This document shows, one piece after another, positions 12,878-13,046 of a stretch of 64,000 nt of DNA. Each line of letters opens with the position of its first letter. Position 1 is the first letter of the stretch. A model generated the notes under the pieces. The model saw only the letters and a list, made by a program, of their open reading frames with translations. It was not told the DNA's origin and did not search any database. The DNA comes from Escherichia coli (GTDB taxonomy: Bacteria; Pseudomonadota; Gammaproteobacteria; Enterobacterales; Enterobacteriaceae): NCBI RefSeq assembly GCF_013122565.1, contig NZ_CP053258.1; one strand, written 5' to 3'. The position numbers and the translations under genes were made by a program.

Positions 12878-13046
12878 ACGCCTTATCCATCCTACGGTTC
12901 TGTGCTCGGGACCTGTAGGCCTGATAAGACGCGTCAGCGTCGCATCAGGCACTGAATGCCGGATGCGGCGTGAACGCCTTATCCGTCCTACGTCTCTGTG
13001 CTCGGGACCTGTAGGCCTGATAAGACGCGTCAGCGTCGCATCAGGC
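12878..13046. repeat. REP/BIME-type intergenic palindromic elements, including two near-identical ~70-bp direct copies
   Basis: Direct reading: unit ...gccttatcc(a/g)tcctacg...tgtgctcgggacctgtaggcctgataagacgcgtcagcgtcgcatcaggc occurs twice (about 12880-12950 and 12975-13046), separated by a gccggatgcggcgtgaacgcc REP-like palindrome. Confidence 0.75.

Follow-up and report, generated by a model that had tools for sequence, protein, structure and literature searches.

REP hairpins located between genes, such as those of malE-malF and hisJ-hisQ, are said to stabilise mRNA, a result attributed to Newbury and Higgins (1987-88). BIME-2 (bacterial interspersed mosaic element, family 2) is defined by inversely oriented y- and z2-type REPs that are joined by a short linker, repeated in tandem and present in numbers that differ from strain to strain (Ton-Hoang et al. 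2012, PMC3333891). According to the same study, TnpA-REP (RayT) depends on a GTAG located 5' of the hairpin foot, on a stem with a mismatch and on C/T cleavage motifs in the inverted REP, in which the slash stands at the cleavage point. The best-studied related array, REP325, consists of six y-z2 units between the tandem genes yjdM and yjdN; its presence makes the upstream yjdM mRNA more stable and attenuates yjdN, the latter in a partly Rho-dependent manner (Harris et al. 2026, bioRxiv 10.64898/2026.03.23.713779). It was also found there that tandem gene pairs with a REP between them exhibit upstream-biased expression genome-wide, and that REP fragments of two to four hairpins show no sensitivity to bicyclomycin (Rho).

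The colanic acid genes are described as forming one long operon under JUMPStart/RfaH anti-termination (PMC9976346). For E. coli K-12, a 'tandem' REP between wzxC and wcaK of this operon, REP144, is listed at 2118467-2118652 (supplementary table, bioRxiv 10.64898/2026.03.23.713779), and Iguchi et al. 2011 (PMC3158064) described REPs in the wcaK-wzxC spacer, together with indels containing REPs and a recombination junction. Thus, a REP array at this site was already known, and the name 'REP144' itself gave no matches in a full-text literature search. Here, the corresponding array is analysed within a 64-kb stretch of E. coli DNA, referred to below as the window, and compared with its alleles in other E. 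coli strains and with the same junction in related species.

Anatomy of the Array

In the window, the array is flanked by wzxC (11354-12832; NCBIfam PRK10459 equivalog, 831 bits), whose TGA stop codon lies at 12830-12832 on the plus strand, and wcaK (13108-14388; TIGR04006 equivalog, 926 bits), whose ribosome-binding site GAGGA and ATG start fall at 13099-13110 (plus strand). Both genes were matched over their full length by the equivalog models; wcaJ lies upstream of wzxC, wcaL lies downstream of wcaK, and the spacer between wzxC and wcaK is 275 bp long. A repeat search of the whole 64-kb window revealed only two long direct repeats, one of which is a 75-nt sequence in this spacer (12877-12951 and 12973-13047) with 96% identity and a start-to-start offset of 96 nt. 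Tandem Repeats Finder delimited the repeat at 12860-13047, with a period of 96, 1.9 copies, 92% matches and a score of 327.

The array proper extends from 12861 to 13046 and contains four REPs in the order y1-z2-y2-z2, which make up two 96-bp units, each of which runs from a y-type REP through a 19-nt linker to an inverted z2-type REP and closes with a 7-nt linker. The first y-type REP (y1, 12861-12895, plus strand, GCCGGGTGCAGCGTAAAACGCCTTATCCATCCTAC) is degenerate, ends in a 3' CTAC tail and was recognised by its alignment to y2; it is absent from the consensus-search matches because it carries more than three mismatches to the y consensus. It is followed by a tail-to-tail linker (12896-12914, plus strand, GGTTCTGTGCTCGGGACCT), read directly from the sequence and apparently locus-specific, and by the first z2-type REP (12915-12950, minus strand), with GTAG at 12915-12918 on the plus strand. 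The head-to-head linker ACTGAAT (12951-12957, plus strand), which is 6 nt shorter than the linker of the Rfam naRNA4 model, leads to the second y-type REP (y2, 12958-12991, plus strand, GCCGGATGCGGCGTGAACGCCTTATCCGTCCTAC). The second tail-to-tail linker, also obtained by sequence reading (12992-13010, plus strand, 19 nt, GTCTCTGTGCTCGGGACCT), and the second z2-type REP (13011-13046, minus strand) complete the array. In consensus searches of the window, in which no match was expected by chance for either type, y2 showed one mismatch and both z2 REPs showed none; the GTAG/CTAC tail is present on all four REPs. As the first-pass annotation had reported, both copies close with the palindrome GCCTGATAAGACGCGTCAGCGTCGCATCAGGC (12919-12950 and 13015-13046), whose 14-nt arms are 86% complementary.

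The direct repeat, the consensus matches and the flanking-gene models therefore agree with the earlier claim that a REP-containing unit is duplicated in tandem between wzxC and wcaK, and the alignment of the 75-nt copies leaves their significant similarity, on which that claim had been made to depend, in place. The units had been described as near-identical and about 70 bp long; the near-identity stands (96% over 75 nt), but the boundaries do not, as the true unit measures 96 bp. Likewise, the sequence said to separate the units is indeed REP-like, but it is not an additional REP: it is the 5' half of y2 and hence a member of unit 2. Because the start given previously, 12878, cuts inside the degenerate y1, the locus should be read as four REPs with a period of 96 bp rather than as two units plus an extra REP. 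The spurious open reading frames mentioned for both strands were found as well (12834-13100, plus strand, 88 aa; 12818-13048, minus strand, 76 aa); they are uncalled in the RefSeq annotation and are gone from alleles that lack the array.

Identity of the Array

It is virtually certain that the array is a BIME-2 and the counterpart of E. coli K-12 REP144. Both REP types are present (y2 with one mismatch, two perfect z2 sequences and the degenerate y1), they alternate in orientation in tandem (y on the plus strand and z2 on the minus strand, twice, with a period of 96), and the REPs are separated by short linkers of 7 and 19 nt, not by the long L motif with an IHF site that would mark a BIME-1. 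Moreover, the array is extragenic, being confined to the 275-bp wzxC-wcaK spacer, and 60 E. coli genomes carry between 0 and 6 units of it. Compared with the BIME-2 norm, the window differs only in the degeneracy of y1 and in a mismatch in the foot of y2 (GTCCTAC for GGCCTAC), neither of which is an essential difference. The coordinates of K-12 REP144 (2118467-2118652) correspond to 12860-13045 of the window, and the spacer of E. coli K-12 MG1655 is also 275 bp long, has the same layout and differs from that of the window at a few positions. The array is thus a known element of a well-known family, a further example of a BIME-2 within an operon, and adds nothing to what is known about REPs as such.

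The sequence features needed by TnpA-REP are all present in the letters of the array: GTAG, internal stem loops and the motifs TGCC/TGAT and GGCC/TACA, which are cleaved in vitro (PMC3333891). In the motif search, GTAGG was located on the plus strand at 12915 and 13011 and on the minus strand at 12895 and 12991; the putative cleavage motif TGCCTGAT occurs at 12944-12951 and 13040-13047 (minus strand), and the second one, [GT][GTA]CCTAC[ACG], at 12914-12921 and 13010-13017 (minus strand) and at 12985-12992 (plus strand).

The array also resembles REP325 with its naRNA1-6 (Qian et al. 2015, PMC4550694) in that both are y-z2 tandems between co-oriented genes of one operon. The Rfam naRNA4 model (RF02564), which represents the REP325 y-z2 pair, matches the window array above threshold at 12918-12988 on the minus strand, i.e., across y2 and the first z2 (72.9 bits vs. 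a gathering threshold of 59.5), whereas the plus strand scores 49 bits and remains below it. Because the better match is antisense and the weaker one sense, the window array is oriented opposite to REP325 with respect to operon transcription. The two arrays also differ in unit number (two vs. six) and in the length of the head-to-head linker (7 vs. 13 nt). Other Rfam families gave only chance-level matches in the array.

Other Elements of the Window

Elsewhere in the window, the Rfam algC RNA motif RF02929 was found at 8479-8528 (plus strand; 77.3 bits vs. a gathering threshold of 33.8), no more than about 1.5 kb upstream of wcaJ; from its position, we infer that it lies just upstream of cpsG (phosphomannomutase), inside the colanic acid operon. 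After a JUMPstart element (RF01707, 18337-18375, plus strand, 56.9 bits), the GC content is low (0.28-0.38; region 18000-30000), and this stretch is presumably the O-antigen gene cluster. This low-GC region contains two diverged copies of a 91-nt sequence (19479-19569 and 21632-21722; 76% identity, 2.15 kb apart), which may have been left behind by an H-repeat or IS-like element. A His leader (41246-41369, minus strand) and STnc240 (43668-43742, plus strand) were also detected.

Unit-Number Variation in E. coli

A query consisting of only the two 300-nt flanks matched 4641 of 5426 complete E. coli genomes, and spacer lengths were taken from 60 matches spread evenly down the ranking. The comparison of copy number proposed in the first-pass annotation bore fruit: the spacer holds from 0 to 6 units in this sample. 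Two units (274-275 bp) are the commonest state, seen in 21 of the 60 genomes. Spacers of 70-72 bp without any unit occur in 6/60, one unit (179 bp) in 8/60, three units (371 bp) in 3/60, four units (468-469 bp) in 6/60, five units (563-566 bp) in 7/60 and six units (661-662 bp) in 4/60. The remaining genomes carry an unrelated BoxC allele (161 bp, 3/60), an allele with an internal deletion (145 bp, 1/60) or the wcaK flank only, in a BIME-BIME fusion (1/60). Most of these length classes were checked by reading the sequences. In addition, a junction-spanning query found the uninterrupted empty site in at least 327 of the 5426 genomes.

As 0 to 6 units coexist among strains, no unit is required. 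Within the sample, unit number nonetheless appears lineage-stable, the K-12-like records having two units and two O157:H7-like records having one. In the E. coli genomes, a 57-mer spanning the 19-nt linker has a median of one match and a maximum of four per genome; the linker is apparently confined to this locus, and it therefore appears that the units multiplied by local amplification rather than by repeated insertion.

It was considered whether very long arrays might be hidden in the approximately 785 genomes without flank matches; this idea was rejected, as approximately 800 genomes lack any match to wcaJ-wcaL. Presumably, these genomes (approximately 800 of 5426 by megablast against wcaJ-wzxC-wcaK-wcaL) lack the colanic acid locus or carry something else in its place, perhaps a group 1 capsule locus.

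The fusion allele was found in strain TUM11356 (NZ_CP135656.1, extracted locus 446-791). There, alkA and its own y-z2 BIME unit are fused, inside z2, to the wzxC-wcaK array, which is followed by wcaK; the genome contains no wzxC 3' flank, and the fusion was interpreted by comparison with the alkA region of K-12 (extracted locus 2085-2192). From this arrangement, it looks as if BIME-to-BIME recombination removed a segment reaching from dgcE across wza-wzxC, approximately 28 kb long in K-12, a loss that would abolish colanic acid synthesis.

In one rival view, the array has no function and is a neutral or slightly deleterious passenger, whose sole effect would be to promote rearrangements and to serve as a recombination breakpoint. 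This explanation, which we regard as conceivable but less than likely, draws on the extensive polymorphism in presence and unit number, on the internal-deletion allele (L006), on the apparent recombination of the TUM11356 array with the alkA BIME that cost the strain its wza-wzxC segment and on the abrupt shift in between-strain similarity at the wzxC-wcaK spacer (PMC3158064). Nevertheless, any stable array of hairpins in an mRNA is expected to affect decay to some extent, and REPs correlate genome-wide with upstream-biased expression (bioRxiv 10.64898/2026.03.23.713779). In fact, the passenger hypothesis and the explanation preferred below, in which the array is semi-selfish and modestly affects the transcript, differ in effect size only.

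Empty Site and Flanking Repeats

The array is enclosed by an outer hairpin, the left arm of which (GTTGTTGTTTTCG, 12833-12845, plus strand) begins 1 nt after the wzxC stop codon, while the right arm (CGAACACAACAAAC, 13059-13072, plus strand) is imperfect in the window allele. The inverted repeat around the array was delimited at 12834-12851 and 13053-13070, with 83% complementarity. The array is also bordered by an 8-bp direct repeat with the pattern CGRCAACG, present as CGACAACG on the left (12850-12857, plus strand) and as CGGCAACG on the right (13053-13060, plus strand). The allele without units reads GTTGTTGTTTTCG-GTTCCGGCAA-CGAAAACAACAAC and forms a perfect 13-bp stem 1 nt past the wzxC stop. 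In empty alleles (L005 and L091-L093), a single CGGCAACG occupies the hairpin loop; in filled alleles, the array occupies that loop, between two copies of the 8-mer. In E. whittamii (L012), the same outer hairpin holds a lone z2 REP.

The pattern of the 8-bp repeat fits either an insertion with target duplication or a deletion between the two copies (microhomology), and no description of short direct repeats flanking BIMEs was found in PMC3333891. Because the empty alleles sit on different flank backgrounds (L005, L091, L092 and L093), either units have been gained or lost more than once or alleles recombine.

The wzxC-wcaK Junction in Other Species

The length of the wzxC-wcaK spacer was compared among representatives of 78 Enterobacteriaceae species. 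It does not exceed 45 bp in 52 of the 78, with the typical sequence TTTTAAGAGGTCATT, and most Enterobacteriaceae have only 14-40 bp at this position. Since such short spacers prevail and 0-unit alleles are common within E. coli, the operon evidently works without the array. Spacers of at least 50 bp were found in 27/78 species, and those of which the sequence was read proved to contain mostly species-specific REP-type palindromes or BoxC/TMECO triplex motifs, which are mutually unrelated. REP-type palindromes are located at the junction in Citrobacter amalonaticus, a Citrobacter sp. and Salmonella arizonae, and BoxC/TMECO at the junction in Pluralibacter, Pseudenterobacter, Lelliottia, Phytobacter, Kosakonia and others.

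BoxC/TMECO (Holder et al. 2015, PMC4666352) thus shares the junction with the BIME-2 array, both in many genera and in the B-type allele of E. coli, but it represents an unrelated sequence family (CCCTCNCCC...GGGAGAGGG...GGGTGAGGG) and is absent from the window. In E. coli B-LamR, the 161-bp spacer (extracted locus 434-594) contains no REP and carries the BoxC/TMECO intrastrand-triplex motif. The wcaK ribosome-binding region of this 161-bp allele differs from that of the window and resembles those of other genera, which suggests that the wcaK side of the allele was imported by recombination.

Neighbouring junctions are rarely expanded (wcaJ-wzxC in 4/76, wcaK-wcaL in 0/80 and wcaL-wcaM in 5/77 species), and the wzxC-wcaK junction can therefore be regarded as a preferred landing site for repeats. 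Both tolerance and selection fit this preference. A more far-reaching proposal would be that the junction is a convergently colonised site that favours a structured element and that the array is a heritable rheostat of the late colanic acid genes; separately, the 8-bp repeat could record a de novo BIME insertion with target duplication. Taken together, these claims are highly doubtful; such an insertion would not be predicted by the HUH-type TnpA-REP model.

RNA Structure and Expression

The long wza-wcaM transcript includes the array and hence all four of its hairpins. The sense RNA of the spacer, the folding of which had been suggested as a check in the first-pass annotation, is strongly structured: its predicted energy is -126.9 kcal/mol (z = -7.3), and none of 200 shuffled sequences was as stable. 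Individually, the sense-strand hairpins are predicted at -21.9 kcal/mol for each z2, -14.8 for y2 and -8.6 for y1, and neighbouring inverted REPs can pair with each other. No intrinsic terminator (hairpin plus U-tract) was found in the interval 12400-13500; behind the last REP, the sense strand continues with a run of A6 (13047-13052, plus strand) instead of a U-tract. No sigma-70-like promoter was predicted in the wzxC-wcaK spacer. According to Liang, Rudd and Deutscher (2015), REPs that down-regulate translation reportedly begin no farther than about 15 nt from the upstream stop codon; in the window, the first REP begins 28 nt past the wzxC stop (12832 to 12861).

Published DESeq2 baseMean values for the K-12 genes upstream of REP144 are 48 for cpsB, 37.5 for wcaJ and 36.2 for wzxC, and those for the genes downstream of it are 90.9 for wcaK, 161.5 for wcaL and 144.3 for wcaM (bioRxiv 10.64898/2026.03.23.713779); these are very low uninduced counts from a library that may not be strand-specific. 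The step-up across REP144 hints that, at the basal level, wcaKLM transcripts arise from a separate source or that the mRNAs differ in stability. The malE-malF and hisJ-hisQ REPs resemble the window array in being stable intercistronic hairpins in a polycistronic transcript; unlike in those cases, the genes downstream of REP144 are not less abundant (counts from bioRxiv 10.64898/2026.03.23.713779). The same data set contains one in vitro Rho-binding peak next to REP144, the only one there, and it is antisense to wzxC.

These data bear directly on the idea that the array is a selected regulatory device, a heritable copy-number dial that would set the ratio of wza-wzxC to wcaK/wcaL/wcaM through mRNA stabilisation and partly Rho-dependent attenuation and hence affect colanic acid pyruvylation and completion of the repeat unit. 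REP325 is a dual terminator-stabiliser, and the authors of that study propose REPs as 'tunable dials' (bioRxiv 10.64898/2026.03.23.713779). In the spacer studied here, the predicted folding energy grows with the number of units, from -22 kcal/mol for 0 units to -349 kcal/mol for 6 units, and the apparent stability of unit number within the sampled lineages (two in K-12-like and one in O157:H7-like records) is compatible with selection. The expansion of the junction by unrelated palindromic repeats in 27/78 species, compared with 0-5 at neighbouring junctions, could also reflect convergent selection, but repeated colonisation is equally consistent with a site that tolerates insertions. Moreover, every unit number from 0 to 6 coexists within one species, and 52/78 species manage with a spacer of at most 45 bp. 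Basal counts do not drop across REP144, REP325 fragments with four hairpins are Rho-insensitive, and JUMPStart/RfaH anti-termination (PMC9976346) should suppress Rho-dependent attenuation. In view of these arguments, a selected dial seems unlikely.

A Possible Role at the DNA Level

It is also worth considering that the array acts not in RNA but as DNA, as a strong gyrase site, a cruciform or a site for nucleoid proteins (HU together with a naRNA4-like RNA), which would relieve supercoiling in the heavily transcribed 20-kb operon or organise the chromosome. BIME-2 elements are significantly enriched for gyrase cleavage sites, with y REPs being cut preferentially; nonetheless, only a subset of BIME-2 elements is cleaved, and wzxC/wcaK are not named in the supplementary text of that study as available, which is possibly incomplete (PMC6379681). 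With regard to the nucleoid, the above-threshold Rfam naRNA4 match of the array recalls the report that naRNA4 and HU condense DNA (PMC4550694). However, REP325/naRNA4 had no measurable effect on nucleoid compaction, and REP-REP contacts were absent, in the later study (bioRxiv 10.64898/2026.03.23.713779). Furthermore, the strand of the window array that resembles naRNA4 is antisense to the operon, promoter prediction gave nothing nearby, and 0-unit alleles are common. As the principal explanation of the array, a function of this kind is very unlikely.

Origin and Role of the Array

The reading that we prefer is that of a semi-selfish BIME-2 with a modest, dispensable effect on the transcript; taken as a whole, function included, it has in our estimation roughly an even chance of being correct. 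In this scenario, a BIME-2 would have entered the loop of the spacer hairpin just past the wzxC stop, once or a few times. Local gains and losses of units, whether through unequal recombination, replication slippage or strand transfer catalysed by TnpA-REP (RayT), would then have given the range from 0 to 6 units; the anatomy, the polymorphism and the apparent confinement of the linker to the locus are observed, and the mechanism of amplification is inferred.

The first-pass annotation had suggested that the array could stabilise or attenuate the transcript, and by analogy with REP325, such a role is plausible. Most likely, the hairpins would slow 3'-to-5' exonucleolytic decay of the upstream wza-wzxC segment, as a modest and dispensable barrier. 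Read-through into wcaKLM may be slightly reduced by them as well, but RfaH anti-termination would probably blunt this effect, and on DNA the array may serve as a gyrase site. The frequency of 0-unit alleles, the higher downstream counts and the antisense position of the Rho peak argue against a strong effect. Hence, the array is dispensable and at most fine-tunes expression of the colanic acid operon.

For annotation, recognising the array accounts for a 275-bp gap in an otherwise tightly packed operon and marks the overlapping open reading frames as spurious. The apparent deletion in TUM11356 provides an illustration of REP-mediated genome instability. Finally, the natural allelic series at this junction, which comprises 0 to 6 units and a BoxC replacement allele, offers a convenient test bed for the model in which REPs act as a stabiliser/attenuator 'dial'.
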